Part shown: piece after piece, positions 12,946 to 57,597 of the stretch
Position numbering within the stretch: the first letter of the stretch is position 1
How the letters are laid out: each line of letters starts with the position of its first letter
Source of the DNA: a virus
DNA: 64,000 bases
Direction: 5' to 3' (one strand)
Virus record (IMG/VR): IMGVR_UViG_3300045988_160394
Coordinates: 160,001 to 224,000 of that record
The notes under the pieces: generated by a model
The model's database searches: none
What the model was told of the DNA's origin: nothing
The model's input: only the letters and a program-made list of their open reading frames with translations
Program-made: the position numbers and the translations under genes

Positions 12946-12973
12946 TATGGATTCCCCCTTGAATATAATTAAT

Positions 12974-18380: not shown

Positions 18381-18844
18381 ATTTCATCATTTCATGATTT
18401 TATATCTTCAGTATTCTTAGTTATTTTATCATCTCTAGTTTTAAACTCATCATTTAAACCATCTATTCTTTGTTTATCAGAAGCACTCATTAAACCAGCA
18501 TTTGTTTTGCTAGCCATGGTAGTATCTGCTTTATTATCTCACTTTGTTTTTTCTGCGTCTGTAACAAATCTATGAGTTGCGTCTTCTGTGATCATTGTTG
18601 CAGCATGAGTAGAAGGATGTGTATAGTTATTAACGCCATCTAATTTAGCCTTATCTTCTTTAGACATAAAACCGTCTTTAGCAGGAGTAGCTAATCCATG
18701 TTCATGATTGCCATCCATATTATTTAATTTATCATTCAATGTTTTACCATCTGAAAATTCTACAAATTCAGATTTAGTAACAGGATAAACATTAACGTTT
18801 TGACCATCAACATTAGTTGATAGTTGTATTCTTTTATTTGTCAT
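13535..18844 (-). CDS. Modular tail fibre, 1769 aa under table 4
   Basis: ATG 18842-18844 downstream of terminator 18893-18921. Fragments 18539-18844, 18038-18382, 16589-18016, 15929-16258, 15404-15694 and 13781-15097 share one frame. Eight in-frame TGA: 18539, 18392, 18038, 16589, 16556, 15929, 15404, 13781. I translated all gaps; the first TAA is at 13535-13537. The N-terminal G(F/L)MSxxDKxK(L/I)DG repeats are typical of Firmicutes-phage fibres. Confidence 0.8.
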
Positions 18845-25625: not shown

Positions 25626-28600
25626 TATATCACCTCTATATCTATGTTATTTATTTTTATAGCAGAATTACTTGTTTTTAATAAAACTTTAAATCTAAAA
25701 AATCTAGTATCGTTAAACACTAACTGTTTGGATATTCTTAAGTCTTGTGTTAACTCTATCTTTTTTCATGAATGCCATATATCTGCACTATAACTATCTT
25801 TTGAACATTGAACAAATAAATCTACGTCGCCAAGACTACTTATATCAGATATATCTATATCTCTTATTTTATAATTATTAGAATATTGAGTATCTATTAT
25901 TTTAGTTATTAACTCTCCTGAACTAGGAGTTAATAATTTAGGATAATTATCTTTAGTAGAACAATACTCTGCGTATATTCCAAAATTATTTATATATTTC
26001 TTTTCTGGCATTACTATTCTAAGTTTAATATATTTAAGTAATGAGTCTCCATAGACATATCCTATATCATTAAAGCTATTAACAGGTATATATTCTCCAT
26101 TCCTGCTATTACATGATAAGATTTGAATTTTTATTCCCCTCATGTTTTCAAATCCTATTTCATTTATTTTAAATATTAATCTCTTTATAGTTTTAGGATT
26201 GTCTAAACATATAGGAGGTGTTTCTATATGTCCTTCTGTTTTATCTGTATATATATAATTATTTTCTATATTTACATTTAAAGAACTACATTTATTAAAA
26301 TCTTCTCTTGTGTCATATAAGTATAAAGGAGATACTCCCCAATACATATTAGAAGCTATTTTTACATATTTGTCTTTAGTTAATAAAGCTCCTTTATTGA
26401 TTACTTTATCATTATCATCAAAACTAACTCTTATTTTTTGTCCTGATTTACAATGTTCAGTTATTTTAAGATTTAATAAATCTATGTTCTTTTTATGAGC
26501 AGCTATTAAGTTACTATCATTTGAAATTATAATATCATCAATAGTTCCACTGCCTTTTACTATTAAATAATATTTTTTATTCTCTTTAGGAACAATTACA
26601 CTAGATCTTATATTATCTGTTTCATGACTTATTTCATTTAGTATCTTTATATCTATAGAATGAGGGAAATCCATATTTAAATATTTCTTTTCTTCACCAA
26701 TATAAATAGATAAAGATTTCTCAGACCATAAACTTATATAATTCATCTCATTTTGTTTTAATACATGAGTTATATCTATATAAGCATATCCATTAGGAAT
26801 TTCAGGAGAGAAGTTTATTCCTAATCCATTTAGCCCATTCTTTAAAAACATTTTTGTTCCAAAAGTATTTCATGAATTAAAGCTATCACATGCTGTTAAT
26901 GATTCCATAAATGAGACTCCATGTACATTTGATTTACTAGCATCAAAATTATATAATTCATTAATTCCTCTAAATATCATTTCTGAATTTCTTACAAAGT
27001 TATTAGTAGCTTTAAAGGTAGTTATTTCTTCTCCACTTATATCAACGTTATTCATTTGTATATGTTTTTCATTCTTTATATAAACTTCATCTTGTGAAGG
27101 AAATAAATAATATTCTCTGCCATTGATATAATAATAGCCTGTTTGAACCAATAAAGTATCTTTTTCAACAACCTTATTAAATATTAATACGTTATTAACT
27201 CCTTCTGAGTTAAAACTAGGAGAACTACATTTTGTATATATCATATCTACTTCATTAAATCTATCTAACTGCCTTAAATCAAATCTATAACCATCAGTAA
27301 CTCCAGCTATAGAAAATCTATCTATTTCTTCATAAGCATCTATATCATATCCTATAGCTTTATACAAAGCATCTTCACTTAATAAAATGCTTATAGGATT
27401 TTTTATAGTATATCTTAAATATACTTTTTTAGCTTGATCTATTAAACTTTTATCTGTCCATAACATAATACCTTCATCTTTTAACAATTCAAACTCTGAA
27501 ATAGTTATTTCGTTTCTGCCATCGTAAGCAGAATATCCAATATAAAGTAATTCATCTATATTAGAATAAGCTAGCTTTGTAAAACCATCCTCTTCCATAA
27601 GCAATTCTTCTTGAATAATTAAGTTTTCATTTTGCTTATCGGAATATCTTTCATAGATAACTTCACAACCTGGCTCTGGTATTACTATATATTTATTAGT
27701 GAATATCTCATTATTCTCACTTAATTTATAACTTCTTTTTAAATCAACATATCTACTTAATAAAACTTCATCTTTCATATCTATAGTAGTAATCTTATAG
27801 CTTTTAGAGTTAGAAAGATCTATTGGAGTTTTAATAGCCAAATCTTTTAATCCTAAGCACCAGTTGTTTAATATATCGAAACTATGATTCTTTTCAGCTA
27901 CAGAACAAAACTTTACATCAAAATCATAAGTAGTTCCAAAAGGAGTAACTTCATAATACATTAGTGTCTTTGTACTAAGTATGGGACTAAAGTTATTTAA
28001 TACTTTAATATTTCTTACTTCACCTGTAAACATATTAGTTTCATTTATAGCTTGATATATTTTAGTTCCAGCTGGAATAAAACTAATAGAATCAAAAGGA
28101 TGTTCTGTTTCAATATTATTTATTTGAGAATCTATGCTATTAAAAGATATAGTTAAACTATCTGGTAGTTTTGTAAACTTATATTTTTTAGCATCTATTC
28201 CTTCGAATATATCATTCTTTATTTTTATAATTAACACTTTAGGGTTATCAGGATTATTGTTTTCTATTATTAATCCCTTACAAAGTTTATTAGCATAAAC
28301 TTTATCTCTACTAGAATCATATTCTGGGAAATATCTTTTTATCATGTTTTCTAGTGTTATAGTTTTTAATGCGGTATTTCTTATTCCATCTATAGTAACA
28401 AAATTAACACTTTGTCCAGCTTTCATGGTTATATTATAGTAAACCTTGCCGCTTTCTTCTATTAAGTAAGTAGAAGCATTGTCACAAACAACGTTCTTTA
28501 TGTTTTCATATTCTTCTAAATTTAATCTTATTCAAGCATTATCTTTTAAAGCTTTATACGAAGTAGCAGGAGTATATTTTTTATTTCTATTTAAAATTGA

Positions 28601-30694
28601 ACCTACAGTATTAACTGTTAGTAAATCCACTAATCCATTTGTAGATATTTCTATTATCCTATTACAATTATCTTTATTAGGAATAATATCAGTAAGATAT
28701 TTTAAAGATTGCATATCCCCACCAACATATATAGCTTTTAGAATTGGAGAAGAACTTGTTTTACTAGACATTTCTATTATTAGATTATTAATAGCTATAT
28801 TAGGCAATCTATATCCATGATTATCTTTAATTAAATTTCCGTATTGTAATTTTAAATCAATATTGTGGCAAGCATATTTAAAGTTAGAAAATCTAACAGG
28901 GCCATCATGATTACTTATTACAGTAAGCTTTATTCTTTTAGAATTGTCATATGTTTTAGAAGTCCATTTTTTAGGTTCACTTAATTTTTCATATGAAGTA
29001 TTACCATCTATCTCTATAAATAAATCAGCATCTCCTTCTATTAGTTCAAAGCTAATTTCATTAGCTTCTGTATCTATAACGAACTTTCTTTCTTGATTAA
29101 TATCATATCTAAATACTAATTCATTTTCTTTTCAAAAACTATATTTATCGTTTTTTATTAAGCTATATGGCATATCTACTAGTTGATGTTCTATATCTAC
29201 TATTACATTACTTAATCCTAATCCTGATACATTTAATACACCTCTTCCTGTATTAATGCCGTATCCTAATTCAATACCCTCTTTGTTATCTATTAACCCT
29301 TCATAGCTATTAAAATGTTTAATTGATTTTACAGATTTCTTAATAGAAGTGTTTACTAATGAACCTTGAGCATTAAGAGTAAAACCAGGAGCTGGTTTTA
29401 ATAAGTCTTTTACTTCTACTATTTCATTAGTGACTTTATGTTTATAAATTACTTTAGCTTTAGATATAGACATTGAATTATAATTATCAGGATAGAACTC
29501 TAATCTATATAATTGATTATCAGTTATTTTTGAATTATCAACTGCAACAACATCTTTACCTAATTTATATATCTCTTCTATCTTTCTTTTTTCTTCTTTT
29601 TGACTGTACTCGAATACTGATAGCTCTATGTTATCATTTGTTATTTCTATTGCTTCAGAAGCTTTTATATTATATTTAGCATTTATAGGAGTTAATATAT
29701 CCTCATATTTCTTTAATTGAAAACTAATCTCTTTTTTTATATTTTTGTCTTGTACATATTTTTCTAATTTAACTAATGATTTATTATACATTATAATATC
29801 TGCATCTGTAGTAGTTTCTTGATCAGCCATTATTACTTTTAAATCTGTATCTGAACCTATACCATTTTGATATTCTGATATTATTTCATCTCAAACATTA
29901 TCTAAAAATTCTATAGATTTAAAACTATAACTCCATTTATCTAAATCTCATTGTTTATCTTTTAAACAGTCTCTATTAATTTTATCTAGCATTTCTAATA
30001 ATGTTTTATATTCTTTATATGGTTTAACAAGATTTTCTGGAGTAACTTTTGATATTACAATATCATCTTCTGTTATATCAACTAAAGACATTAATTCACT
30101 TATTATTGCATTCCTCAATCCTTTCTCTGAAGAATTACCTAAGTTCTTTGTAGTATAGATTATTCTATCTAATAGTTGTTTGTTAGTTTCTTCAATATGC
30201 CTTTCTATACCAACAAATACAGCATATTCATCGAATATATTTCAAACATGTTTTTTCTCTAATTGGTATTCATAATTATAATCGTTTATGTTAATAGAAA
30301 AGCTTAACACTTCTGGATCTATTATTTCTAATCTTAAATAAACATTTCCATTTTCATAGTAAACAATATTTATGTTATTATAAAACTCATCTATATCATT
30401 AGTTAACTCATATTTCTTATTGTTATATTCTACATAAGAAATATAATCGGTATCTTTTATTTGACCTATATTTGAACCATATACAAAGGCAATAATTGTA
30501 TCTTCTTTTCCCTTATATTTATCTAAGAAGTAAAAATCTTTATATTTCTTTATAGCTGAATCAAGCTCTAAAGTTTCTTTTAGAGCTGTATCAACTAATT
30601 GTCCTCCTATAGATTTATCACTTCTTTTTCTAATGTCTGACCATAATGGAAAATATTCTAAAGCTCTTTTAAGCATATTTGAATAATTAAACAT
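25625..30694 (-). CDS. Giant baseplate/fibre-network protein, 1689 aa under table 4
   Basis: ATG 30692-30694 overlaps the TAA of the Baseplate-J-like gene (TAATG), with GGGAGGT upstream. Fragments 30242-30694, 29132-29830, 28532-28807, 26870-28426 and 25766-26851 are all in one frame. Seven in-frame TGA: 30242, 29948, 29891, 29132, 28532, 26870, 25766. The gaps contain no TAA/TAG. TAA at 25625-25627. Confidence 0.7.
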
Positions 30695-32938: not shown

Positions 32939-35900
32939 CTATTTTATATTATTTGACTTTAATGGAGCTAACGCCATTATGTTAAATTTTTTTCCGTTCT
33001 TGTTATAACTGAATACACCATCACTATCTTTTATTATATTTGTATCACCAACATATTTATCTAAAACCTCTTTAAATTCATCTGAATTCTTTTTAACTTC
33101 TAATACCATTGAATAACCTGTAGATCTTCATTTACCCTTAGTATCATTTGCTCTTGCTCCACTTTTAAAAAGTATTTTACTATCTTTAATTTCTTCTTCT
33201 GCTAGCATTTTACTTAATAGCCATACTAACTCTTCAGAAACTAAAGGCATATCTATAATATTGTTTTCTATTTTTATAGGTACTGCTTCTGTTCCACTTT
33301 CAAAAGGTATGTTAATAGTTGCTGATGGTTTATCACTATGAGCTATAGAGAATCTTTTAGCCACAATAGCTGCTTTTATATTTGGATCGTTAACTAAGCT
33401 ATTAAGTTTTAATACTTTTGGATTTGTAGCTAATGTCATTGTACTAACATCAAGGATTTCATATTGCTTTAATATATCTTCTGAATAATCGTCGCTTCTT
33501 GGAGTTTTGATTCTAGGCTTAACCATCATTGCATATGATTCTTGGTTATTAGCAGAATATGAAGAAGAAACATTATTATAAATCTCTTGTAGTAATTCTT
33601 CTTCAGTTTTTTCATCTCCAACATCTACTCCTAAATCTTTTCTTCATTCTTGAGATAAATTATCTAATACTCCTTTATCGACGAATTGATCTAATATCCA
33701 ATCCATTACAGGTAAGTCTCCATCTAAGTCTTTTATACTTTTAACAAATTGTAAGACCATTCCTTGTATAGAATCATAACCATCTTTTACTGGCCAGCCA
33801 TATACAGAACCTTTGTGTCCGTTCATTCCAGCTATTAAAGGTTTATTATTTTTCTTCAATGGATAAACATCTATTGCTTGTATTCCTTCTAAAAATCTAG
33901 TAAAGACTTCTTGAGCATTATTAATCATAACATACATAACTGTTTCAATAGCTAAATCTATTAACAGCGTTGCAGGATTTAATTTTATTACTCCTTCAGC
34001 TACAGCTTTTAATGATTTTAATAAAGTTCCACCTCTTAGTTTATCAGCAACTTTAGCAAATTTGGTTACCTTAGCTGCATCATCTAATTCGAATATAGAT
34101 TTAAAGCTTTTAAGAAAGTCTCCTATAGAATCTATTTTTAATGTTTTATTATTAATAGCTTTTAATAGTTCTTCTTCATTTAATATTTTAGCAAGATCTT
34201 TATTTATCTTTTGAGCTTCTCCAAACTCTTTAGCACTCCATTTATCTAATATTGCTCTAGACTCTCTAGATAAAGACTTATATAGATTATTTTCTTTGCT
34301 AGATATTTTTTTAATATCTTCTGCAAATTCATGTAAGTTTAATTTACTATAATCTAAGTGTTTATCTAAATCTATTTTAGTTGATTTAATTTCTTTCAAT
34401 ATTTCTTCTAATTTCTCAGGAGTTATATCACTAGAAACATTACCTACTTTATCTTTTCCAAAAGCTTTCTTAAGAGCTTCTGCATATTCGTCTGCGTCTA
34501 TTCTAGAATAATGTAACAATGCTTCAGCAACATCATCTATCTTATCTAATGATCCTGGTTTAATTTTTGATAAATTGTTTATAGCATTATCTACTCCATT
34601 AAGATTTAAGGATTCTTTATTAGTAAATATGTTTAAACTTTCGAACAATGATTTAGCTGCTGGTCTATCTTTCAAGAATTCTTTCATACCTGTAGCATGA
34701 GATAAGTCTTCTGCTATATCTACTAGTTTTTCTGTTTTACCGTACATATCTTTACTTTTAGCAATTACTCTAGTAAGTTTACCATTAACCATATAAGCGT
34801 TAACTTTGTCGGCTATTGCTAAACCAACTCCAAATCCTAATAGTCCTCCAGCTGTAGATAATAAGTTTTGAGCTGCTACTTCGTATTGGTCCTTATGTCT
34901 TGCAATAACATCAGGCATTATAGAAGTAGTAAATCCTGTATCTATACTCATAGTATGAATAACTGCTTCAACTTCAAATTGTCCCATCATATCTTCATAA
35001 GTATCATGGATATAGATTCTGTCATGTGGTTTTATAGAAGGATCACCAAGTACAGCAACATCTCCTAAATACATATCTTTTACAGCATTCTTTAATGAGT
35101 TAGCAGTAACTCTTAAAGCAGTTGCTTTATTTACTTTATCATCATTAGGATCTGTAGCCCATTCTTCTGATAAATGGTTTGTAACTCCTAAATCAATCCA
35201 TCCATTACCTGCTGCTAATAATCCTGTATCAACAGTCATTGTTTTTTGATATTCAGGATATATATTCATATCTACATATATAGGTCCTACAGTAGATTGT
35301 TCTCTACCTCACCATGGAGATGATGATTGCCACATTCCTATTGCATTAGTTTTTAATTGAGCTTCTGATGCCTTTATAGAGTTATAAACTATATCAGTAT
35401 AAGAATCTATATAATGAAATTGTTGGAATGGCTTTCTTTTTTCTACTACTTTATTATCTACTAGTACGTAGTCATAAGCATAATAATGATTTGGTTTTCC
35501 TAAGAAGATAGTACTTCTAAAGCCGAAATCTCTTATAGCTCCTATATAGTTGATTCCTGCATTAGCAGATAAATGTAATAGATCCCAGAATGTTTTATCT
35601 TGTAATGAAGTATTTAATATTGGTGTTATCTTTTTTAAACTAGGACCATTAGTTACTTCATTAACTCCTTTTAATAAACTTTTATCTGAAACTTCATATA
35701 AGTTTTGCACTACTTCACCTTGTTCAAAAATACTTGTATATTTAGGATCTCCAAAATGAGTAATACCAAATATATTGTCATTAAACCATCTACCATCAGA
35801 GAAATAGTCAACTGCTTTTCTCCATCCTCCACATTTAGCTGTTAATAGTTTGGCTAATAAATCTCTAGGACTTTCTCCTCCTTTAGACCAGTTACCTCTA

Positions 35901-38900
35901 AAATCTTTAAACCATGTTACAGCTGATTGTGCAGCATCTATAGATACAGCTTCTATTTCACCAAAACCACTTAAAGGATTTGTAAGCTCATGTCCATCTC
36001 CTTGAGCAACTATTTGAGCTACTTCTGCTACTTCAACTTCAGCTACTTTTCCATTAAACACTACAGGTAATTTAGAACCGTCTCCTGAGTATCCCATTCT
36101 AACATGTATTCTTATACCTGGTTGTAACATAACTGTATCAGGTAGATTCTTTCTAGCTCTTATTCTTTTTTCTTTATCGAAATAAGCTTTAGGAGAGAAT
36201 ATAGAATCGAACACATCTCTTAATCCATATATATCAGCGTATTGTTGTGTAGTTGTTGAATCAGGTTCCATAGTATATGAATTAAATGTATTATTCATAA
36301 CTAATGTACATGTATCAGCTGCTATCTTTCTAGATTTAACAACGTTAATACTAGATATAGAGTTCATGTTATAGAAGTTGTCATGTAACTTCCAAGAACC
36401 AAATTTTCTACCTTCATCTACAAATACAACATAATAAGTAGGGAATGCTCTTGCCAATCTACCTCTTTTATCATTAACAAGCATATCATAGAATGAATGT
36501 AATATATATGCTCTAGGATCTTCAGCTGATTCTATGAATACATCTTTCATTAATGAGTTCATAACCTTCTGACTAGTAGATGTATAAGCTATAGTCTTTC
36601 CATCATTACTTAATGTCATATTTATTCCACCCATAGCAGATAGGAATTTTACAGCTGATATTTTTGAATCAGATAATCCTTCTCCAGATTCAATATAACC
36701 TGTTAAATTATTTAATGATTCATAATCTCTATATTTAAATAATGTATATAAGTCATTTGCATTTCTAGTTGTAGCTGCTATAAAAGGATATATTAATCTA
36801 GCACAAAAAGCTTGCTGAGATGCTCTGTGTACAGAATTCATTAATTCCTTCATTTCTTTTTGGTCAAAACCTAAAGCTTTTAATCCTCCTGTTACAGTCT
36901 TTACATCACTAAGATTAGGTTTTTTATCAGCATCTTTTCCTTTAAGTTCAGCATTTGAAAAAATCAATAAAGGATTACCCATATATAAAGGGTTTAACAT
37001 TCTACCTAATAAACCACCATCTTCTGGCATATCTGAGAATCCAAAACTTTCATAATAGATATCATTCCAGTCATTTGCTATTATATCTATTTCAGATATT
37101 AAAAGCCCATCTACTATCATCTTTCTTAAATGAAGTAATACATTTCTTAAGAAAGCTTCTGCATTATTTTCTATGCTTGTTAAAATAGCTGTTTTATATT
37201 TCTTTATTTCATCACTATTAGAATCTAACTTATTATAATATGGGTCTAAAAATCCTGCCTGTATCTTTTCATAAGGAGAATCTTTTTCTGATACATATGT
37301 TATATTTGATTCTTTCTGCATCATGTCAGAAATCAATTTAGGATCAGAATATTGTACTATTCTTCACGCTCCAAAAACTGTTCCTGTATCGATTCCTTCT
37401 TTTATACTTAAAGCATAACTAGATTTACCTTCTATTTTATCTGTAATACAATAAGGTAAAAATGATCCTTTATATTCCGAATCTGTTTGATCTTTATTAG
37501 GATATTCAGCTAATGTCATATAATGATTTGGATACCAATCTTCTTCTTCTTTTATTCCACTAGCATATTCTCTATTTCCTGATAAAGCACATCCTGAGGC
37601 AAATAAGAATCCTATCATATATTGAATTGGATTTGCTAACTCAAAAGAACTTTTACCGAAAGAATCAGTTATTGGATGCATTTTAATTGATGTAGCTGTT
37701 GGACATAGTATTTCAATTAATTCTTTACCTTCTCCTTTTGTAAATAAATTGTTTACTGCGTCGCTACAAACTTTTTTATAGTTATTTTTTCTAGTTAAGT
37801 CTTTACTGTTCTTTTCATAATCTATAGGCTTAGATAATATTTTATCTATTAAGTTTATACATTTAGTTCTTCTAGCTTTTATTTCTTCTGCGAAAGCATC
37901 TTTGTTGTCTTCTTTTATTTTTCTAATAGCTTCATCAACACATTTATCAGCTAAAGGAGCTTTCCATCCAGGTATGATTTCTCATCCATCAGTTACGTCA
38001 GTCATAACTAATTTTTTAATAGCCATAGAAAGTCCTAATCTTTCTTCTATTGTTTCTTTCTTATCCTTAGATAAGTTTTTCATGTTTTTCAGTTTAGAAG
38101 AAATTTCTCCTTCGATGTTTTTAATTACATCATAGTAAGAGCTACCTTTTGCATTATCTGCACTTTCTAAAGTTATTCCTGTATAAGCTTCTATTTTTCC
38201 TGTTAGTTCAGCTCCATATACGTCTTTAAATTTAAACATATGAGATGGATCATCTTCTGTTTTGAATAAGTTTTTAGCTAAACCTTCTTTAACCATTTTC
38301 TTTATTACTAAAGATGTATATGGATAAGCATAAACAATATAGAAATCTGGATCTGGATAACTTCTATTTTGACCAGCGTATTTAACATATCTAAATCCTA
38401 ATTTACCTAACTCTTCTAATGAAGGTAAATCTAAATCTGGATATAGTTCTACTTTTGATAAAGCATAATTTAAGTTAAAGTAATTTTTAATAGATAAGCT
38501 AGAACTTCCATTAAAGTCAACTCTTCCACCTTCTGCTTTTACATCCAATCTTCTTAAAGCTTCTCTTTGTCTTTGAGTTCTATCTACAGAAGTTAATCTC
38601 ATAAATATAGAATATACTCCAGGGAAACCTTCCATAGTATCTACTTCTATCATATCTATTAATACTTCAGATACTCCTAACATTGTAGTTAAATCAGATT
38701 TGATTTTAATAGGCCATGCAGGTAAAACTTTTCTATATGTTTTTGCAGTAGCAGATGCTAGATTAGGAAGAGAGTTTAATGCTGAAACTATAGTTATATC
38801 GTCAGTAACTAATTGAAATTCTAATTGTATATCTTGTCCACCTATATATTGAGGACCTTTACCTTCTATAGCTTTTAATGAAACTTCTGTAAAACTGTTA

Positions 38901-41893
38901 GCCATATTAGCCATAACATTAGTACATAGAATATTTGTTACATAAGGTACAAAAGGCATATTAGCTGGATTTTTGTAATCCTTAATATAGAAGTCTATTT
39001 CTTTATTGTATTTGTTTAATGGATCATCATCAGGTAAATCTTGAGGATTATCTTCTTGATTTATTCCATTAATTAAATTCTTTAATGCTGTAACGTCATT
39101 ACTTTTTCTTAATATAAAAGTATTTTTATAATGATCAGATTTTTCATCATCTGAAATATTTAATGTAGCTAATTTAAATATACTATCTTTATTAAATGTC
39201 ATTTCAAATGACACTCTCATACAATCATCTATAAATATTTCATTAGGTTTTAAAGGATTGTTTTTATCGTTCTTACCTAATACTTCTTTTATGTTAGACC
39301 AGTCTTCATTATTTATAGATTCTAAATTTAACTTTAAGCTAAATTCCCATATAAGATGATATATATCATTAGCATCTTTAGTTATTATTTCATTCATTGT
39401 TAAGTCTTTTAAATACTTAGGATTATTAAAGTCCCCTAATAAAGCATTTTGTAAAGGTAATATATAGTTCTTAGTTACACTTGATAAAGCTTTGTCGTTT
39501 GTATCATAAATAAATATTCTAGACTTATCTGTATTACAAATATTCTCTTCTCTTGATCCATCTCCTACAAATAGAGGAGGATTCATCTTTATAAAATGCT
39601 TCTTCTTAACAGCATTACCTATTAAGTTTTCTATTGCTATATTAAACTTTTCATTCTTATAGTTCTCAACTGAATCTAAAGCTAATGCTAATTCACTTAA
39701 TGATTTAACGAATGTTTTAGCATCATCACTTAAATCTATTGAAGAAGTTGGTGTTAATAAGTTTTCATCTCTATCTTTTTTTATTTGAAGAGCATTCGCT
39801 AACCAGTTTTCATCTGGTATATAAAAACTTATTTCTCCTTTATTTACTTTAGGACCGCACTCATACCACCATGGACCAACAGTATTTTTATGAGTATAAT
39901 ATTGTAGATTATACTCATAGCTATTAAATTCCATAAGACTTAAGTTCGTTCCAGCTATTATAGATCTTTGATAGTAATATCTGAATATCTCCCAGTTAAA
40001 ACTTTTTGCGAACATAGGAGGCATTTCTGCTAGTTTTTCATTATCTTCTTTACCTGTATCTTTATCTATAGGTATATCTGGCATATAAACTTTATAGTTA
40101 AATTCTTTTAAAGTTAATATTACTTTTAATAGTCTAGGGAAACCTTCTACGTTTTGAATACTCATATTTGATAAAGCAACAGCTTCTATTCCTAATACAT
40201 CATTTATATAACCGTTCTCTATAGGCAAGAAAGGAGCTATTTTGAATTGGGCTATTAAACTTCTTAAGCCATCCATTTTATATTCAAAAGATGTTCCATT
40301 AGGACTTGTATAAACATAGTCTATTCCATTTATACCAACGTCTTCGTAAAAGTATAATGTTAGTTCTAACATTTGCTCATTATGTCCTTTATGTTTAGCT
40401 TGAGTACCTTTACTTCTCATATTAGGTATTCTTTCATAAGTACATTGAGTAATGTTTCTTATACTTTCTGGCGGTATAAGCATTAAAGTATCTCCTATGA
40501 ATAATGCACAATTTCTAACTTTAGTAAAATCTATTCCTGTTAATTCTTTATGAAGTTTTAATCTATCTTCATAAGATTTTTCTGATATCTTATTGAAACT
40601 ATCTAACCATTCTATATTATTTCTATCATATGACCATAAATTAAATGAATCAGATATTCCTGAACCAATAGCTTGTAATTCTGGAGAGCTATTAAATTTA
40701 GGATTAGCTATAGTTGATTCTGTATTACATAAAACATATTTATTTAAGTTTATCCATTTACCTTCATATTTTACATAAACAACTCCTAGAGATCTTTTAT
40801 AGTTATCCATTCCATATGGTATATAATTATAATTTGTTATAGGAAGGTCTCCATAATACATATCCCATTCTTTAATCATAAAATCGACAGTATCTTTTAA
40901 ATAATAAATGCTGTTAAAAGTTCTATCATCATTATCTGAATTAGTTTTACTTGCTTTAATTCCGTTTGCATTTAAAACTAGAACTATCTCTTCAGATTTT
41001 TCTAAAACTTTTCTAGCAGCTTCTTGAGCTTTATAAGCATCTTTAATAGTGTTAGAAGTAGATTCGTCTTTTTGCCCCATAACAATAAAGTACTTATATC
41101 CATCTTTTTTATTTATATATGGATTAGCACTCATTCTAGTTATTATTTCAGTGTATAAAGTTTTATCTCCACTTTCTCCTACTTTTCATAAAGTTACTTT
41201 GTCGTCATTTTTTCTTTCTGTAACTTTACCACTTTTTCTATCGTAATTTAAGTTTTCATAAGTTATAAGAGTTTTACCATTAATCATCTCTTTCATTTTA
41301 CCGAAGGTTGTTTCTGTTACTCTTTTATCATAGTCTTCTTCTCTGCATAGTTGTACTTCATAGTGAGGTATTTCCATAGAGTCTATACCTAATGCTCTGA
41401 CTTGTATTGATTGTCCTCCACCCATCTTTTTAAAGAAGTCTCTAAAGTTATTGTACTTTACACTTTCAGAACCATTAGTAAACATTATAGGTTGATTACC
41501 ATCATTTATATCTTCTAATCTAAAAGACCATGTATCTCCGTCAAACTTATTTAAATCTCAAGTAGACCCATTTTTATCTATATCAGCTTTATTAGCTTTT
41601 AATACGAAAGCTCCTTCTTCTGAATAATGTCCTGGATTAGTAGAGAACGGTGCTTCTACATAAAAGTATGAATCTAATATTTCTTTATCAGAATATTCAC
41701 CATCTGTATTTTTATCTACGTATTGTTGATAAATTTCTGACATTAAATCTTCTTGCATCATTTCATCCATATCAGGAGTTAAAAACTTTTTAGGATTTAC
41801 AGTATTAAAGTCGCTTCTATTATTAGCCATACTAATATATTTTTCTTTATTCTCTTTTAGTTTTTTTAGTATGTCTTTATTATCTTGACCCAT
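32939..41893 (-). CDS. Giant 2984 aa protein: N-terminal SNase-like nuclease motif, large unknown region, gp27/XkdQ-like baseplate hub region (table 4)
   Basis: ATG 41891-41893 with AAAGGAGA 5 nt upstream. Seven track fragments (41558-41893, 41186-41485, 37982-41134, 37364-37681, 35309-37336, 33644-35269, 33128-33529) all have a start coordinate = 2 mod 3. I translated every gap and the only interruptions are the boundary TGAs (41558, 41186, 37982, 37364, 35309, 33644, 33128). No SD precedes the internal ATG/TTG at 41485, 41134, 37681, 37336, 35269 or 33529. The first true stop, TAG 32939-32941, lies inside the next gene's SD. Confidence 0.7.
34900..36450 (-). other. gp27 / gpD / XkdQ-like baseplate hub region inside ORF 32939-41893
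   Basis: ...INVVKSRKIAADTCTLVMNN..., LQPGIRIHVRMGYSGDGSKLPVVFNGKVAEVEV and, after TGA 35309, LGDPSIKPHDRIYIHDTYEDMMGQFEVEAVIHTMSIDTGFTTSI match the three conserved blocks I associate with phage hub / late control D proteins. Boundaries are approximate. Confidence 0.5.
41372..41542 (-). other. Staphylococcal-nuclease (SNase/thermonuclease)-like motif pair near the N-terminus of ORF 32939-41893
   Basis: KFDGDTWSF (41522-41542) is followed ~46 aa later by VRALGIDSMEIP (R 41396-41398, D, S, E 41372-41374). SNase has DGDT then R-x4-D-T-x-E (FRLLLVDTPE). The R-x4-D-[ST]-x-E spacing is identical, but the DGDT-to-Arg spacer is ~30 aa longer. Confidence 0.45.
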
Positions 41894-41915
41894 AGTAGTC
41901 TCCTTTCTATTTATA

Positions 41916-41941: not shown

Positions 41942-44900
41942 TTAAAAATTCCTATTTATATAATTCTCGATATCTCTATCTGTTACTGGCTGATCTTTTT
42001 TATTTTTTATATTCATGTTTATATTAACAGCTCCACCTACTGTAGCTTCTGCTGCTTTTGCCATGATCTTCTCCATATACTTTCTACCTTTTTTAGTATC
42101 CGCCTTTATATTTATTATATAACCTTGTTGAGTATTCCCTGTCACATAACCGCTATCTTTTTCCATGAATTCAGGAATGCTCATAATTTGTTGTGATTTA
42201 TTTTCTTTGCTAACTTCACTAGCTTGTTTATCATTTAAAGGATTACCAGAAGCATAGCCTCCAATCATTAATCCAGCTGCTAAACCTAATACTGCTTTAC
42301 CCATTCCTCCTACTCTTACATTTTTAACTCCATCAGCTAAAGATTCTGTCATACTTTCAGATAAACGTTTTATTTCTGCGTCATATTGTCCAGAGTTCAT
42401 TAGTTTGTTTTTTGCAATATTACTTTCTTGTTGAGCCATGCTTCTTTGAGCTATTTCATCTAAAGCATTTTGTAAGAAAGCAGGATCTCCATATCCCATT
42501 AAAGCTTGGTGTCTAGTTGCAAAAGTACTAGCTTCTTCAGCAGCTGCTCCAATAGAACCATTATACCAAAGTTTTTCAGTTCTTGCTCCATTTCTTCCAG
42601 TAGCTTCTATAGATGCTTTATAAGATAATGCTAGTTTGTCATGAGACATTTCTTTCATTCTTCCTAAGAATTTTTGTTTCATTGCATTAGCTCCACTTAT
42701 CATAGGGTCAGCTTGTTTTTCTATATTAGCTCTTTCTTCTTTGCTTAATATAAGATGTCCCATATGTTCATATGATTTCTTAAATATATCATCACCATAA
42801 TCATCTAACCAACTGCCTAATTCATTTAATGATTCTGTAGATGCTACTGTTCCTTTATTATTAAAAATATCATTCATTGCTTTTTTGAAGTTTTTAATTC
42901 TATTATCATCATATACTCCACCAGCTAATTTTTTAGAAGAGATTACTCCTTGTTCAGCTGTATCTAAAGCATTCCAAACATAGTTATTAAAAGCTATTTC
43001 TTCAGGAGAAGTATTTCTAAATACATCAGCTAACTTAACAGCATTTAAAGCTTGGTTAACTGAACCTGTTGCAGCTAGTCCTGTTTTAGCCATCATTTCT
43101 TGTGCATACTTATCTACAGACATTCTTTTAATAGCTGTAGCTTCTAATTTACTAAACGTATCATCATCAACATTACCTTTTATAACAGTTAAAGCTTCGT
43201 CTAGTATTTTGCCAGGCTCTGATGCTTTATTTAAATCTATATCAAATTTTTCATCTTTAGTTATGTCTTTAGCCAAACTTAATAAATTAGTTGTATCTTC
43301 ACTTAGCTTATTAAACTCTTTTACAGTAGGCATATGAGCAACAGTTGTAAAAGTCTTTTTACCTAGAATAGATTCTCCGCCTGGAACTAAAACCATGTTA
43401 TCTGGATTAGATAAGTTTTGATTTTTTATAAAATCTTCTTTAATAGTTTTAGCTGCTTTATCTTGCCAATATTTATTATCTGTAACAGCAACACTATACA
43501 TAGCTCTTTCTTGTGCAGCAAAATAATCATATACTTCACCTGACATTAAATTGTTTTCTATTGCATAGTTTCTACCACCATTTTTATTAGCTAATTCATA
43601 TAAAGCTCCATCTACTACTTTCCCATCTTTATCTCTATATTCAATTCTGAATGAAGATAAAGAGTCACCGTCTTGGTCGGCATTAGCTTTTAACATTGTA
43701 GATACAGATATCTTAGTTTGATTACCTTGTAATCTTTTATCTAAGAATACTCTAGTTTGGTTTATAGAATTATTCCTTGTATTTGGATAACGGTCAGTTA
43801 TATCAAAAGTACCATATTCTAATAAGAAATCATCCATTTCACTTTCTGTTTTAAATCCAAACTTCTTTAATGTTTCTGGTTTATAATATCCCATCTTTTC
43901 CATCTGTTCTTTTGATACGTATTTATAATCAAAATAAGCTTCACCATTAGCTTCTCATTCAGCTATTGTTTTACCCATTATTTTAGATTTTTTAGTAAGA
44001 TCATCTCCAACAGTTACATCTATACCTGCCTCTTTAGCTGCCTCTACTAACTCTTTAGTCGTAGTATCAGTTATTAATCCAGATGATTTAAGTCTATAAG
44101 CAGTTGCATTTATTTCTATTTTACTAGCATTATGATGCATACCATTCTTACCAAATATAGAATCTCTTATACCTTCTATAGCTTCTGTTCTATTTCCTAA
44201 AACTCTTTGGAATAGTCTTTCATATTCATCATCTTGTTTCCCAGATAAAGATTCTAATTCTTCTATACTATGTTTAAGCTTATTTAATTTTTGATGTCCT
44301 ACATCTCTAACTTCCTCATCTGCTATTTTCATACCAGTACCAGGGACAGCTAGATATCTATTCTCCTGACCAAACTTTTCACCTAAATCTACAACTATGT
44401 TTCTTTCTACTAAATCATCAACTTTAAAGTTAACATCTTTGATATCAATAACTTCAAAGCCTTTTTGTTTCATATCTTCTAAACTTAAGTTATATCCTCT
44501 ATTAAAGCTATTAGCTTTCATAGCCATTTGTATTTTATATTCTTTTTCTGCACCTTCTACACCTAATTTAATCTTATATTTTTTAGCGTATTCATGAATG
44601 TCTTTTAAATGAGCGTATCTTTCTGTTTTAACCATATTATCTGTTAGTAGTTCATCAGTGTATGGATTAAAGAATTGATCATCTTTAAATTGGTCTAATA
44701 AACCTTTTAATGATTTCTCTCCTATAATATCTTTAGAAAAAGTAACAGTACCATCAGCATTTTCTGTTAAATGATCTTTGAAGGCATGTGAGCTTAACAA
44801 TGTTTTAGTATCTAGTTCTCCATTATTAATCATTTTTTCAATTTGTTCTGCATGAGCTTCTGTCAAGGATACCCTTTCTAATATAGATAATTCTTGGTCT

Positions 44901-47900
44901 CCAAACCTCATAGTTTTCATAGTGCCAGCTTTAGAATCTATATCTTCTAACATAGAATCTATTTTCATTATTTGTTGTTGAATAGCACTTTTCTCACTAG
45001 GGTCGGTAGACTTAATCATTTGCTTTTCTAGTCCTATTCTTTCTTTTTTTAATTCTTTTTTTGTTTTTAACATTTCAAAGTATTCTGCTGTTACACCTGT
45101 TTGTGTTTCTGCATCTCTAACATATTTTACGTTCTCTCTAGTATTAGTACCTATAGCAACTTTAGCATCTTTTATAAACTTACCATCAACAGTTATATCT
45201 TTTTGTATAGTAGCATATGAACCAATAGCTTCTTTTTTGTATTCATATTTACCATCTTTATTCATAATATAAATATCTTTAGCTACTAATCTATCATTTT
45301 CATCCATATCTTCTAATTCTTCATCTAAAGATTTTATTAATGCTGTAAACTTATCTTTATCTAATGATGTAGTTTTATTAACAGAATAAAATTTATCATC
45401 TATAAAGAATCTACCTTTCTTTTGTTTAACGCCTATAGATTCATAGCTTTTAGTGTCTTTATTTAAATCATATTGTTCTATAAATTGAAATGCTTTATTA
45501 GAATTTATTTTATCTACAATAAAATCTACAGCATCTTTCTCTGAACCATATTTCTTACCTAAGCTGTTAATAGCTTTAGATAATAATCCTTCATACATTT
45601 GTCCTATATTACCGTGCTTAGCTACGGCATCATTAGCTAATAAATGAGTTTTATTTTTTAGTATCTTATCGAATAATAATGCAGAATGCATATTTCTTTC
45701 TACAGTTATAGCTTTCTTTAAATCATCTAAAGATTCAAAACCTATTTTCTTAAGTGTACTTTCAGATAAATCTTTGTTTTTAAAGAATATAGCATCTACA
45801 GTTTCATTAGTAATTACTTTGTCTTTTACTATGTCCCAAGAATCTGTTTCTTTAAAAAATTGTTTTATCTTATTGTTGTATGATCCAGTAGAAGCATAAA
45901 CTATATCTGTCATACCTTTTTCTGCACCAGATGTCATTGTTTTAACATACCCCATAGCAGATATATCTTCTATAGCATATTGTCCAGTAATACCTTCTTT
46001 AGATAGTATCTTCTCTAACTTAGCAGCCATTTCTGCTTGAGTAAGAGGTTGATTGTTTTTATCTAAAAATTTAGATAAGTTCTTTCTTATTATTTTATTT
46101 ATATCTTCGTCTCTTAATTTAGTTCCATCACTTTCATAGAAGTTAAAATTGAAAACTCCATAATGCATTTTAGAAGCAAAGTCTACATTTCTTTCAGCAA
46201 AGCCTTTCCATTTAACAGCTGATTCACCTCTGCTTACTAATTTACCAGGAGAAGAATTGAATACTAATTCTCCATTTTTAAATTCAAAATTACCTCTATA
46301 GTTTAGTAATGCTTCTTGTTGTTTCTTTAAATCATTTCCTACTAATTCATTTAATAAAGCACTAACGTCATAATTTTTACTAAGCTTCTGAGTACTAGCT
46401 GTTCTTAATCCATAAGCAGCTTCATGCACTCTTGAATCTATAATTCTCTCTTGCTCAAAAGTAGATATTGAATTTCTTATATAGTTATAAGCTTTTTTCT
46501 CTATATCTTTTGTTTTTTCATCTACATTAGAATCTTTCATTACCTTAGCAAAGTTATTATCTATTAAAACTTGTAAAGCGTTGCTACTAACATATGTTGT
46601 ATCCATCATTACATCCGTAGTTGTTTTACCTAATCCAAAATAATTTCTCATAGTTCTTTTATCCATAATATCAGAACTTAAAGTATTACCAGCAGTAATT
46701 CCTAGTTTGGATTTCTTTATATCATCTACTCTTAATTGTAGAGCATTACCAGACTGAGTTATAGGTGGTCTTTGAGAATTATCAAAGATAGAGAATGTAG
46801 AGTTTCCTGGTCTATATCCTCTTATTCCTATAAGTGCAGATGTTTTATTTTCTTGACCAGTAAAACCTAATTCTTTAGTTAAAAAAGCAAATTCATTAGA
46901 TACGTTTTTGTCTTCTTTAATTTTATCTAATACAAAGTTAATATTCTTAATCAAATCTCTAGTCATTTCTGGATTAATATCTTCTAATGCTTTCTCTTCT
47001 TTTACATAATATTTAAGATGTTGTTTCATATTATCTAAGAATTCTTTATCAGCAAAATCTATTCCATCTACTATATGATTTAATTTTTGATTTTCTCCAA
47101 ACAAATCTACTAATACATTTTTTATATCTGATATATCTACTCCATAGTTTGAATCTATATCGTTACCTCCAAAACCATTTATGGTAGATCTACTTCTTAA
47201 TGAAGCATTATTTAAAGATACTAATCCTACTAATCTATCAAAACCTTCATCTTGGCCTTTCTTCTCTACTACTCTTTGTACGTTATTACTTATACTATAT
47301 CTATTAAGATTATCTAAAGATGAAGCAGAACCTCCTTTTACTTTTCTACCGTCAGCTTTGAAAGTTAACTTATTATTTACTTGTATTTTCATAGAACCTA
47401 ATTCTAAATACATAGTCTCAGAAGGATCATTGTATTTTATTTTAGGCATAATTAATTCCTCTGATCTACCATTTTTAAATAATAATAAAGAACCATCTTC
47501 TTGTACAGATATAGATGCTCCAAGTTTATCGGCAGTATGAACTACATCTTTTACATAAGTATTTAAATCTTTATATAAGTTGTCATACAATATCTGTTTA
47601 GTCCTATCACCTTTTTTTATTACATTTCTATTAGGTATATAATACTTTTCAACTAAACTTTTAGCATATCTTTCAGCAGATTTCTTAGTACCATCTAGAA
47701 CATTTATATTTGTTCTTTCAACTATATTATTTGCTATTTGTTGAATTATTGGTTTCATATTTTCACTATTTAAGTATCTAACAAATTCAGTATTACCTTC
47801 TAATGCTTTCATAAATGTTCTGCTACCATTTAATATTCCATTTGTAACATTAGACTCTTTAGCTTCTCTCATTCCTTCAATTATAGCTTCTGCTATTTGA

Positions 47901-50782
47901 TACGGATGATAATCTTTATCTTTAAAGCTATTTTTTGAACTAAACTTAAATTGTTTCTTTATATTTTTAAAAGCCTTTGTATCTTTTAAAACCTCATCTT
48001 CTTGTAACATAGCAAATAGTTTTTCAACTGCATCTTTTTCGTAAATTAAATTACCTTTTTTATCTTTACCATGAACAGCCTCTGTAGCTGTTTTTATTAT
48101 TGAGTAAGGGCTATTAACATCATTAAGATTAATCTTTAATATGTTTGCTGTATCTAATGATTTAGCAGTATCTATATAATTAATTCTTTTTCCTCTAATT
48201 ATCTTATCGTATTTTATTTCATATAGATTTTTAAAAGTATTAAAATCTGTTTGTAAATTAACGTCGCCTAATTTAATCATATCGGCAATATCATCATTAC
48301 CGCCTCTAAATTTGTTATTAAATATTCATTCAGCAGTCGTTCCTTTTACTTCTTTAACTGTTCTATTAAATAATTCTTGTTTAACACTTTCAGCCGTTTT
48401 AGGATCTTTAAATACTTCAGTAGCTTCTAAAGCTTCTATTATATTTTTAAACATATTACCATAGCTATTAACCATTTCTAATCCTGTAGCATTATTATCA
48501 ACAGTTGATTGTAATAATCTCATTACATCATTTTTACTATGTCCTAAAGTAGCTATAATCATTTCTTGTGATTTTATTAATTGAGCATTACTAAGTTCCA
48601 TAGCCATTTGCCCTTTAGAAACTCTTTCTGCCATGATAAGAGATATATCTCTACCTGTAATATCCATGTTCAATTCTTTAGATAAGTTTTCTTGTAGATC
48701 AAGTACATTCTTTATTTTCTTATAAGAATTATCTCTAAACATAGAGTTGTCTGCTCTAGAAATTAATTTCTTTTCATTATCAGCTAATACAACTCTATTA
48801 AATAACTCAGTATCAGAAAGACCTTCTTCATTAACTGGTTTAAAGACAACTTTATTAGTTTCTTTATTTTTGTTAATTTCTCTAATATCAAATCTGTCTT
48901 TCATTCCTTTTTTGATTTGAATTCCATTATCTGTTCTTTCTGCAACAATATCAAAGTTACCGCTTAAAAAAGCATTCATCTCTTTTTCTGATTTAAATAT
49001 TAGATTTTGTGTTAAATCTCCTAGTCTTGTTGTAGTTGCGTAATCATCATGTACTGCCATGTTTAATTGAACTTGATAAAGTTTTTTACCAGAATATTCA
49101 GGGGCTATATCTCCCATCATTGTTCTCAATTCATCTGTTAGTTCTATTTCTCTTATATTAGATATATCGTAAAAAGAACCTTTATTAATTCCGAAACCTG
49201 CACTAAAGTTTTCATGCATAGCTCCACCAGCTGCTTGTAAGGCTTCATCTCCTTTACCTAGTAAATGATTATCAGCTGTATATATAGTTCCTGTACTTTT
49301 ACTTTGTGCAAAGTTGAAATAATTTCTTCCACCATAACTAGTACTAACTCCTTTTTTAGCTTGAAGTATTTGCTTACCAGGAGTTAATACTGTATCTTCT
49401 GTTTTTATATTTTCTATTAAATTGTTTATGTGCTCTATAACAGATACATTCCCTGGAAGACTTTCTGATTTCTTTGTAAAAAACCATGATAATCCAGTAA
49501 CGTCATCTTCAGCCATATGAGGTTTTAGTCCTTCACTATTAAACAAACCTCCATAATGTTTTTGTAATAAGTATTCCTGTCCTCTTACTTTATCTATATC
49601 TCCTATTTTTGCATTTCCATATACAGAAGATAATGAATTATAATCTGTTGCTAATTTAACTCCACCTAAAACATCTAGATCTGCATAAGATGGAATATTA
49701 AAGCCAACTCTTTTACTTTCGAAATAATTATTTAATTTTCCATTATAATCGTTATTCCATTTTAATAACATATTATTTAAAATAAGTTCGTCAAACGCAT
49801 TACTGTTAAAACCAGAAATCATTGCTTTTTTATTATTAACAGCTGTTTGAGCTTTACTTATAGTTTGTGTAACTTTTAATATATCTGCTTTTATTCCATC
49901 AATTTCTCCTGTTTGATGATAAACATTATTTAAAACTTCTGCTCCTTTTTCTATAACTGAAATATCTTTATAGTTATTTCTATCTACATTAGGGAAATTA
50001 GTTGCTTTAAAATATTTTTCTCCTTTAACTTTTTCATATTTAAAATCTTTATCTGCATATTTAGCTAAACGCATAGCTGTTACTTTTAATTCTTCGTCAC
50101 TATCTATAGTTCCATTTTCTATAGCCTTTCTTATTTTATTTACAGTTTCTTCTTTTTCTTTATCTGACATTCCTATAAGTACACTTACATTATCTATTAC
50201 CTTACCTGTTTTAACGTCATATTCTTGCATAGCAAATTCTGTAATAGCATTAGGTCTTCATATATTATTTTTATCTTTTCCTCCAAGAGTTTCTAAGTCC
50301 CAAACAAAAAGACTTCCTCCATTACTTTTTAGAGAGTTAAAATATTTATAAGATTCTTTTCATGAATTGATAGATTCATTAGCAGAACCTCTTTGTTTAC
50401 TATGAACAACATTACCTAAATTCTTTATTGTTAATCCTAACATATTCTCTGATGAATTAGATTTATCACCTATTATTTCAAAGAAGTTTAATCCTTTATC
50501 TCCGATGTTGGTTAATTGTCTAAGCTTTTCTGTTATTACATCTATATCGCCAGTAGCAACTTTTTTATTTCATGTATACTTATGCTTATTAATAAACATA
50601 TGGTCAGAATCTTTTATTAAATACTTACCACTATGTAATAATTCTATTGTTCTATTTATTTCTTCTATAGCCGCATTTTCTTTATTTATATCTACTTTTT
50701 TTGAAGCTTCAATGTTACGTTGAGCTATACGGATTCTATCCATAGTAGTTCCAACTATATTAGTTGATTTATTATTAGCCAT
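41942..50782 (-). CDS. Giant 2946 aa protein with DEDDh exonuclease signature and beta-prime-type DPBB (YonO / crAss gp66-like RNA polymerase) signature (table 4)
   Basis: ATG 50780-50782 with AAAGAGGTGG upstream, after terminator 50835-50865. Fragments 50570-50782, 48326-50230, 43955-48280 and 41942-43903 all have a start coordinate = 2 mod 3. The gaps 50231-50569, 48281-48325 and 43904-43954 were translated and contain only TGA. In-frame TGA at 50570, 50360, 50258, 48326 and 43955. TAA at 41942. See the motif features below. Confidence 0.7.
43664..43792 (-). other. Beta-prime-type double-psi beta-barrel catalytic signature (NADQDGD) inside ORF 41942-50782
   Basis: DRYPNTRNNSINQTRVFLDKRLQGNQTKISVSTMLKANADQDGDS was compared with E. 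coli RpoC (as I recall it) [42 protein letters not shown]. Both have R-x-P, then 34-37 residues, then NAD-x-DGD. NADQDGD is encoded at 43664-43684 (plus strand gtcaccgtcttggtcggcatt). Confidence 0.6.
46202..46249 (-). other. Candidate beta-type DPBB lysine motif (weak)
   Basis: PGKLVSRGESAVKWKG loosely resembles the RpoB PGDKMAGRHGNKG motif, with the same K-x3-R spacing and then a longer spacer to KG. It lies ~850 aa upstream of NADQDGD, similar to the beta-to-beta-prime motif distance in a beta/beta-prime fusion. It is suggestive only. Confidence 0.25.
49500..50300 (-). other. DEDDh (DnaQ/RNase T-like) 3'-5' exonuclease signature inside ORF 41942-50782
   Basis: Exo I is FVWDLETLGG (D 50297-50299, E 50291-50293). 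Exo II is GFNSNAFDELIL (D 49790-49792). Exo III is KPHMAEDDV (H 49517-49519, D 49502-49504). The motif order and the H-x4-D spacing match the DEDDh family. The Exo I to Exo II spacing (~150 aa) is longer than usual. Confidence 0.55.
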
Positions 50783-57575: not shown

Positions 57576-57597
57576 GTATTATCACCTCTTTATTGTT

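Follow-up and report, generated by a model that had tools for sequence, protein, structure and literature searches.

A single gene with seven in-frame TGA codons for a giant, probably 0305phi8-36-type, baseplate hub protein

The viral DNA considered here is a stretch of 64,000 nucleotides (the window; positions 160,001 to 224,000 of the IMG/VR record IMGVR_UViG_3300045988_160394), and the gene under study lies on its minus strand between positions 32939 and 41893; with high confidence, a single gene occupies this interval and encodes the central baseplate hub of a jumbo phage that has a contractile tail, belongs to the 0305phi8-36-like lineage, and reads TGA as tryptophan (Trp). Read in this way, 32939..41893 is a single coding sequence of 2984 codons plus TAG, assigned to a giant baseplate hub protein from its full-length homologues and from PHROG 20474 (the gp147 family, labelled 'endolysin'), which matches the protein in five stretches with E=4.8e-168.

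Regarding the frame, 41893..32939 is one open reading frame (ORF) of 2984 sense codons that closes with a TAG at 32939-32941, and an in-frame TAA lies 12 codons 5' of its ATG; the internal stops are seven, all TGA (codons 112, 236, 1304, 1510, 2195, 2750, and 2922), with no TAA or TAG among them. An earlier note on this DNA, made from the letters alone, had described one ORF composed of seven fragments with no Shine-Dalgarno (SD) site between them, and the single ORF, broken by TGA alone and ended by TAG, was found as it said. The number of pieces needs adjustment: ORF calling in the standard code does list seven fragments with 60 aa or more and, beyond these, an eighth that is short, and the seven TGAs divide the frame into eight segments. 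The lack of internal SD sites was borne out for all seven TGAs, since in every case (7/7) the next in-frame ATG lacks an SD-like motif in front of it; the gene itself has an SD-like AAAGGAG 7 nt 5' of its ATG, located by start-site inspection (41900..41906, minus strand), and, of the 26 gene starts inspected across the window, most, the hub gene's among them, have AGGAGG- or GAGGTG-type sites 5-10 nt upstream. Promoter-like and terminator-like matches within the hub gene were at or below shuffle expectation. The hub frame is no chance feature, and it is a real single gene.

As for its relatives, a homologue search with the code-4 translation of the full-length product found 85 homologous clusters, most of them with 2900-3100 aa, 98-100% query coverage and 35-75% identity. 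With the stretch aa 1511-2194 alone, 1230 representative clusters (50% identity) were matched at E<=1e-3, of which 373 reach E<=1e-30; among the 1230, the top 150 are mostly 2500-3600 aa long. The protein had been called exceptionally large, a description that does not hold: about 3000 aa is the norm in a large family, and a giant multi-domain hub was already published in 2007 (PMC2147016). At least one orthologue contig is labelled gut metagenome, and other relatives are metagenomic; blastn of the hub region against GenBank phages gave no match, the relatives surfacing only at the protein level, and a full-length profile run against PDB sequences returned nothing meaningful, only coiled-coil designs at E>0.1.

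Two cultured phages provide the comparison with the standard code. By tblastn and BLASTP, the protein shares collinear blocks, three to four with each, with gp147 of the Bacillus phage 0305phi8-36 (1903 aa) and with CDS0032 of the Moorella phage MTATph1 (2225 aa); both are single uninterrupted ORFs in records that translate in the standard code, and the alignment block of the hub crosses the position of TGA 35309 without a break in both. The earlier note had proposed examining standard-code homologues for separate genes; gp147 and CDS0032 are single ORFs over the aligned blocks, and a stop followed by an SD and a start occurs at none of the junctions.

The use of TGA as a sense codon extends to the whole window. 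With TGA taken as sense, long open frames on the two strands cover 0.980 of the window, as against 0.886 otherwise; every substantial gene is on the minus strand, and the 25 largest minus-strand frames contain 87 in-frame TGA against 102 TGG, most of them carrying at least one TGA, while at least 24 of the 25 end in TAA or TAG and none in TGA when TGA is read as sense. The balance of the two codons is uneven from gene to gene, with 29 TGG and 7 TGA in the hub gene, 12 TGA and 7 TGG in 955-4158, and 7 TGA and no TGG in 12067-12672.

The identity of the amino acid was sought in the columns of 87 aligned homologues and in the DNA of six orthologues (P0001, P0002, P0004, P0008, P0063, and P0071). 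Trp occupies five of the seven TGA columns, in 50, 84, 69, 61, and 74 of the 87 homologues: codon 112 (41558..41560) is TGG in P0071 and P0063 and TGA in P0001; codon 1304 (37982..37984; 84/87) is TGG in P0004, P0063, P0071, and gp147; codon 2195 (35309..35311; 69/87), which the model places within the hub fold, is TGG in P0004 and P0071, as is codon 2750 (33644..33646; 61/87); and codon 2922 (33128..33130; 74/87) is TGG in P0004, P0063, and P0071. The remaining two columns are aromatic or hydrophobic: codon 1510 (37364..37366) falls in an F/W/Y column and is TGG in P0004, and codon 236 (41186..41188) falls in a column that is mostly L/Y/I in the homologues and is TGA in P0001 and P0002. The hub orthologues P0001, P0002, and P0008 have 28, 18, and 20 in-frame TGAs, respectively, and P0004, P0063, and P0071 have none; P0004, with 59% identity, has TGG at 5/7 of the aligned TGA positions, and most of the TGAs of P0001, P0002, and P0008 are found opposite a Trp of the window gene, as a rule a TGG codon. 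Since TGA and TGG exchange at identical Trp columns, they are interchangeable synonymous Trp codons in this clade, and on this comparison of sequences TGA is Trp in this genome. Set in order, the seven related phages form a series of 28, 20, 18, 7, 0, 0, and 0 TGAs in the hub gene, a graded recoding within one clade.

Three loci of relatives, L003-L005, were considered as standard-code counterparts and dropped: even L004 and L005, which look free of TGA, each have a small baseplate gene nearby that requires one TGA to be read through, and 29 kb of L003 contain no TGA at all, neither in frame nor as a terminator. Such loci are lightly recoded or ambiguous and do not count as clean genomes of the standard code, for which reason the standard-code argument rests on the cultured Bacillus and Moorella phages. 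Public gene calls at these loci are broken at a single TGA: the J-like gene at L005:20360-21160 is split, and the 170-aa gene at L004:20016-20528 is split or truncated.

The domain that gives the protein its name lies at aa ~1802-2335 (34889..36490, minus strand) and is of the gp27 / P2 gpD / Mu gp44 type according to BLASTP, to the structural models, and to the published assignment of gp147 (PMC2147016). The domain-wise structure prediction that the earlier note had suggested was performed with AlphaFold2 (AF2) on orthologue P0001, 74% identical, in two pieces, with alignments of 37 and 45 family members, and it returned a predicted hub fold as well as tube-initiator/Dit-like folds. In the model of P0001 residues 1801-3000 (mean pLDDT 69.9), the first ~550 residues matched PDB hubs, the lowest E being 1.4e-10 and the highest TMt 0.65; the Foldseek matches comprise Mu gp44 (1wru), the MuSo2 43-kDa protein (3cdd), the pyocin R2 hub (6u5h_A), T4 gp27 (1k28_D), VgrG, phi812 gp110, and spike-hub proteins of contractile injection systems (CIS). 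The predicted P0001 hub is a four-domain fold with two tube-like beta-barrel domains, matched at E 1e-10 to 1e-6.

The modelling thus confirmed that a gp27/Mu gp44 hub fold spans TGA 35309 (codon 2195). The gp27/XkdQ-like motif blocks formerly noticed on either side of this codon are both present; because the hub region aa ~1802-2335 contains codon 2195, the two blocks are parts of one predicted hub fold, and the statement that the hub requires TGA decoding agrees with the model. The length of the sequence upstream of the hub, given as ~1500 aa, is corrected to ~1800 aa.

Upstream of the hub, two further domains of tube type are predicted. The AF2 model of P0001 residues 88-1230 (pLDDT 72.7) matched, with a Foldseek probability of ~1.0, the tube-initiator chains of more than 10 solved baseplates, namely those of the Streptomyces, AFP, PVC, and Algoriphagus CIS and of the phages A-1(L), phi812, E217, Pa193, Milano, and Mu; the matched chains are of the Cis7/Afp7 type or phage initiators (9gtp_M, 8kea_R/P, 6rao_G, 6j0n_b, 9euf_M, and others). 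In BFVD, the same model matched split entries of ~950-1460 residues, one of them named baseplate hub protein, together with stand-alone DUF6046 proteins of ~170-250 aa, proteins with a Dit-like N-terminal domain, and CIS tube proteins. On the modelled structure, therefore, one or more tube-initiator/Dit-like folds precede the hub. The proposed positions are domain A, tube-like (Dit-like), at aa 455-605 (40079..40531, minus strand), and domain B, DUF6046-like, at aa 975-1112 (38558..38971, minus strand); the two blocks are beta-rich, their secondary-structure elements follow a common order, gp147 and the Moorella protein conserve both, and the weak Dit_like Pfam match of gp147 falls in block A. 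Domains A and B align with each other by hhalign over 62 columns (95.8% probability, E=6.9e-9), and from this sequence similarity they are paralogues that arose by internal duplication. The sole Pfam match of the protein is to DUF6046 in domain B (aa 1061-1105), below the gathering threshold (22.1 bits vs 27.4), and several orthologues carry precomputed PF19512 matches; profiles of domain A or B alone found nothing among PDB sequences. A neighbouring 174-aa protein was considered as a separate tube initiator akin to domains A and B: hhalign shows no similarity, which proves or excludes nothing. The claim that several normally separate proteins are fused in this ORF is thus in line with the predicted tube-initiator/Dit-like/DUF6046 domains and hub in one chain.

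Between the two tube-like domains, a variable 'cargo slot' occupies aa ~650-974 (38972..39946, minus strand). It holds Endonuclease_NS_2 in some orthologues; this domain was looked for in the window protein, whose slot contains unrelated sequence with no recognisable domain. The cargo differs among orthologues P0071 (L003:10001-19786), P0073, and P0048, which have an N-terminal Amidase_2 and/or an Endonuclease_NS_2 between the tube-like domains, P0071 carrying both; this suggests exchangeable slots on a conserved scaffold. Following domain B, the conserved region aa ~1215-1785 (~570 aa; 36539..38251, minus strand) appears in the alignment as specific to the metagenomic family of ~3000-aa proteins, and it is missing from gp147 and from the Moorella homologue.

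As for the N-terminal part, the nuclease-like motif seen earlier belongs to a probable staphylococcal-nuclease (SNase)-like domain, a putative nuclease, split by two insertions and extending over aa ~95-402 (40688..41611, minus strand), as indicated by motifs, Pfam, a spliced profile, and hhalign. Its conserved residues are DGDT at 118-121, R166, D171, E174, H177, D363, Y365, and R367, in the pattern R166..GID.xE174..H177 and D363-x-Y-x-R367, a set of residues that is the hallmark of SNase, and SNase D21, R35, D40, E43, and R87 align in order to D120, R166, D171, E174, and R367. The family alignment shows no variation at R166 and E174 and almost none at D120 and R367; D171, the equivalent of SNase D40, is variable, being Asn in several orthologues, P0001 among them. 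For the profile test, aa 95-180, 278-312, and 355-402 were kept and the two insertions indicated by the model were cut, with splice points chosen by hand; the sole PDB sequences matched below E=0.1 were staphylococcal nuclease/thermonuclease (E 0.015-0.08), and hhalign aligned the spliced profile to the S. aureus nuclease at 91.5% with E=8.7e-7. The SNase-like identity is rated probable, not proven, because the splice points were hand-chosen.

After the hub, a Gly/Ala-rich hydrophobic segment at aa 2343-2362 (34808..34867, minus strand) is, by hydropathy, the only 19-residue window of the protein with a Kyte-Doolittle mean >1.5; a moderately hydrophobic window stands at the same position in many homologues, gp147 included. 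It is followed by a long, mostly alpha-helical and poorly conserved extension of ~430 aa (aa ~2363-2790; 33524..34807, minus strand), which contains the conserved motif YPLKKN..PLIAGMNGHKGSVYG, and by a conserved C-terminal alpha/beta domain (aa ~2848-2974; 32972..33352, minus strand), both drawn from the alignment and the AF2 model. Pfam detected no peptidoglycan-hydrolase signature (SLT, NlpC/P60, M23) in this protein. The C-terminal 'WRSTGY', which MAFFT placed opposite 'GESTG' of gp147, was considered as a degenerate M23 motif and rejected, since hhalign found no match with the M23 region of gp147.

The neighbourhood of the gene is that of 0305phi8-36, where gp145 (a virion protein of 1930 aa) is followed by gp146 (the tape measure, 2537 aa), gp147 (the hub), gp148 (gpV-like), and, further on, gp151 (gpJ-like). 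The window has a matching order of a gp145-like gene, a gene at the tape-measure position, the hub, small baseplate genes, a sheath initiator, and a J-like gene: the first is a 1920-aa homologue of 0305phi8-36 gp145 (51210-56972, minus strand; E=5e-40), and the second (41942-50782, minus strand; 2946 aa) is placed by synteny only, with no sequence match to gp146. Downstream of the hub come small genes coding for 120, 177, and 173 aa; for the last, the orthologue (169-173 aa) matches Sheath_initiator and baseplate-wedge families and PHROGs. A 266-aa downstream protein has its match in a Moorella gene that carries the annotation baseplate wedge subunit, and the orthologues of this 266-aa protein have faint or weak Pfam Baseplate_J_C matches. 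The hub gene therefore lies between the tape-measure gene and the spike, sheath-initiator, and J-like baseplate genes, as expected of a gp27-type hub.

Further large genes of 1067-1769 aa are found downstream, at 955-4158, 4240-8799, 13535-18844, and 25625-30694. The sole sizeable stretches without a minus-strand gene, 56973-57597 and 12673-12973, may be regulatory or intergenic. In the record of 0305phi8-36 (NC_009760.1), gp145, gp146, and gp151-160 are noted as found in virions by mass spectrometry, and gp147 has no such note.

Some points weigh against the assignment as a baseplate hub translated with TGA as Trp, or against parts of it. No Pfam hub family matched the protein at E<=0.1, and the fold evidence comes from models of P0001, an orthologue with 74% identity, at moderate confidence; Hardies et al. 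ranked gp147 among the most divergent hub members (PMC2147016). Foldseek gives no query coordinates, and the tube-like fold was placed on blocks A and B by the order of secondary-structure elements, Pfam hints, and hhalign. The nuclease match depended on the manual removal of two insertions: without splicing, Pfam SNase (PF00565) scored 13.9 bits against a cut-off of 21 (E=0.079) over a 29-residue stretch, hhalign to SNase gave a 20-column match, and Foldseek with the whole 1143-residue model found a weak match to SND1 (4qmg_C, E=0.72). The ~570 aa of region 1215-1785 and the C-terminal domain have no assigned function. Finally, the decoding agent is unseen: ARAGORN found no tRNA in the 64-kb window, suppressors included, no Rfam family reached its gathering score there, and neither a suppressor tRNA nor a release factor or TrpRS can be seen in it. 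With no tRNA in a window that has 87 in-frame TGAs, the TGA-decoding tRNA must come from another part of the genome or from the host.

Different accounts of the TGAs were weighed against the full-length Trp reading. That standard-code ORF calling fragments the interval could mean that eight distinct genes or gene pieces in the standard code, or the remains of a pseudogene, merely share a frame; the comparisons exclude this, because neither an SD nor a plausible start follows the TGAs, the homologues are collinear end to end at 35-75% identity and 98-100% coverage with one ORF in the cultured relatives, and the in-frame stops are all TGA, never TAA or TAG, in a pattern repeated window-wide. Hardly more credit can be given to TGA as glycine, the code 25 of Gracilibacteria and Absconditabacteria: the genome is AT-rich, with ~28% GC in the window, and the lineages that use code 25, and their phages, are AT-rich as well, but Trp is present in 50-84 of 87 homologues at five sites, aromatic or hydrophobic residues fill the remaining two, Gly is seldom seen (in no more than 7/87 at any site), and TGG is found at the same columns. 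The suggestion that TGA is a partly efficient stop, yielding deliberate nested N-terminal products (the nuclease, or the nuclease with the tube-like part) beside some full-length hub, is very improbable. Because tRNA suppression seldom goes to completion, some truncated by-products are expected, and several TGAs are near or between the assigned domain boundaries (1304 follows domain B, 1510 belongs to the middle region, and 2750 precedes the C-terminal domain); however, codon 2195 is inside the predicted hub fold and codons 112 and 236 are inside the SNase-like domain, TGA is present in most large reading frames of the window, and the number and position of the TGAs are not conserved, orthologues having from 0 to 28, three of them none, with TGA and TGG alternating at the same Trp columns. 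As the termination sites are not conserved and some orthologues have no TGA, the relatives would make the full-length chain only, and any truncated products would be incidental; the nested set of products that the earlier note had envisaged is therefore set aside.

A polyprotein, made as one chain that a phage protease or autoproteolysis later cuts into separate nuclease, tube-adaptor, hub, and C-terminal virion proteins, is the alternative with most to recommend it, and it is still unlikely. Some lactococcal Tal proteins with gp27-like N-termini autoproteolyse, the AF2 models have low-confidence linkers between domains, and gp147, unlike its neighbours, lacks the mass-spectrometry note in the record of 0305phi8-36. 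Pfam and PHROG scans, on the other side, found no protease domain or recognisable cleavage motif in the hub protein; the sequence data require no cleavage, and a strict domain order over hundreds of clusters fits a single chain equally well. Translation of a single full-length hub chain is the reading retained here.

Compared with known systems, the closest likeness is with gp147, annotated 'endolysin' and a member of PHROG 20474 with the BtI1 and BwK1 homologues as relatives (PMC2147016). The collinear blocks are 455-647, 989-1200, and 1802-2335 of the window protein with 249-424, 505-737, and 838-1415 of gp147; both genes have the same position after the tape-measure gene, and in both proteins the hub domain makes up just part of a very long chain, to which enzymatic domains, putative in the window protein, are joined at the N-terminus. 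Hardies et al. described gp147 in 2007 as a gp27/gpD hub, far larger and more complex than T4 gp27, with the hub taking about a quarter of the chain; they also described exchangeable enzymatic domains on gp147-type hubs, one version of which, in the BtI1 homologue, is a staphylococcal nuclease, apparently as at the N-terminus here (PMC2147016). The differences are that the window protein is ~1080 aa longer, has the extra ~570-aa conserved middle region and seven TGA codons for Trp, and has none of the NLPC_P60, Peptidase_M23, and weak SLT domains of gp147.

The best match among cultured phages is CDS0032 of MTATph1, also annotated 'endolysin', with 34% identity over the hub (E=2e-94) and further blocks at 359-645, 993-1186, and 2551-2699; like gp147, it adjoins the tape-measure gene, and it differs from the window protein in being shorter, in its weak VanY/M15-like C-terminal signals, and in having no TGA recoding. 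T4 gp27, P2 gpD, Mu gp44, T6SS VgrG, and phi812 gp110 share the predicted fold (E 1e-10 to 1e-6, TMt 0.5-0.65), and phi812 gp110 is also a hub that carries an enzyme, the CHAP 'cleaver' domain (PMC13433997); hubs of the T4 gp27 type, however, have 300-800 aa and a separate hexameric tube initiator, whereas here two paralogous tube-like domains are predicted in the chain itself, upstream of the hub. The Tal proteins of Gram-positive siphophages have a gp27-like domain followed by a long helical C-terminus, and Foldseek matched those of 80alpha and NF5; unlike them, the window protein has no detected C-terminal lytic domain, ~1800 aa of extra N-terminal sequence, and a contractile-tail context. 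As for the code, the Jade, Sapphire, and Agate code-4 gut phages have in common with this genome their large size, TGA reassigned to Trp, recoding in structural genes, and relatives that differ sharply in TGA number (10.1101/2021.08.26.457843); Borges et al. report that TGA recoding is concentrated in the structural genes of large gut phages and that near relatives differ in code use (10.1101/2021.08.26.457843).

Concerning how the protein may work, ribosomes supplied with a TGA-reading tRNA-Trp would translate all 2984 codons as a single chain. To our knowledge, the solved gp27-type hubs are all trimers, and their domains I and III form a pseudo-six-fold face for a separate hexameric tube initiator; by analogy, the hub protein would probably trimerise at the tail tube's tip. 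With two tube-like domains per chain, a trimer would present six tube-like units, which could form a pseudo-hexameric adaptor ring inside the hub polypeptide and replace the separate hexameric tube initiator. In phi812, the counterpart is a hexameric tube initiator and a trimeric hub with an enzymatic domain, exemplified by gp110 and gp113 (PMC13433997). The nuclease, the variable slot, and the helical and hydrophobic C-terminus would be tail-tip 'tool' modules for envelope penetration or for delivery with the tape measure, possibly analogous to the lytic 'cleaver' and the membrane-binding 'clamp' of phi812 gp110 and to the lytic domains of gp147 and of Tal proteins.

Taken together, these steps lead to a tentative proposal, in which the tube-initiator ring has been absorbed into the hub chain, the chain is a modular carrier with exchangeable enzymes in its N-terminal and inter-domain slots, and a virion-borne nuclease stands at, or is ejected from, the tail tip; the slot enzymes may be the SNase-like domain here and Amidase_2 or Endonuclease_NS_2 in relatives. 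Apart from this proposal, the in-frame TGAs would tie the synthesis of the hub to the phase of infection in which TGA is decoded, according to the late-gene model of Borges et al. (10.1101/2021.08.26.457843).

In conclusion, giant hubs that bear extra enzymatic domains are already in the literature, as are structural genes recoded at TGA, and the hub locus, large but not exceptional, does not overturn current understanding. What may be new is in the detail: the two paralogous tube-initiator/Dit-like domains in the hub chain, the split SNase-like domain, and the family-specific insert of ~570 aa. The locus is a well-resolved giant hub of the 0305phi8-36 type, and it suggests a build of nuclease, two tube-like domains, family-specific region, hub, and helical tail. 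Standard-code gene callers cut the hub gene into about eight pieces and so hide the hub, while code 4 restores a clean tail module; the range of 0 to 28 TGAs among the orthologues offers a natural series for how TGA recoding spreads through late genes.

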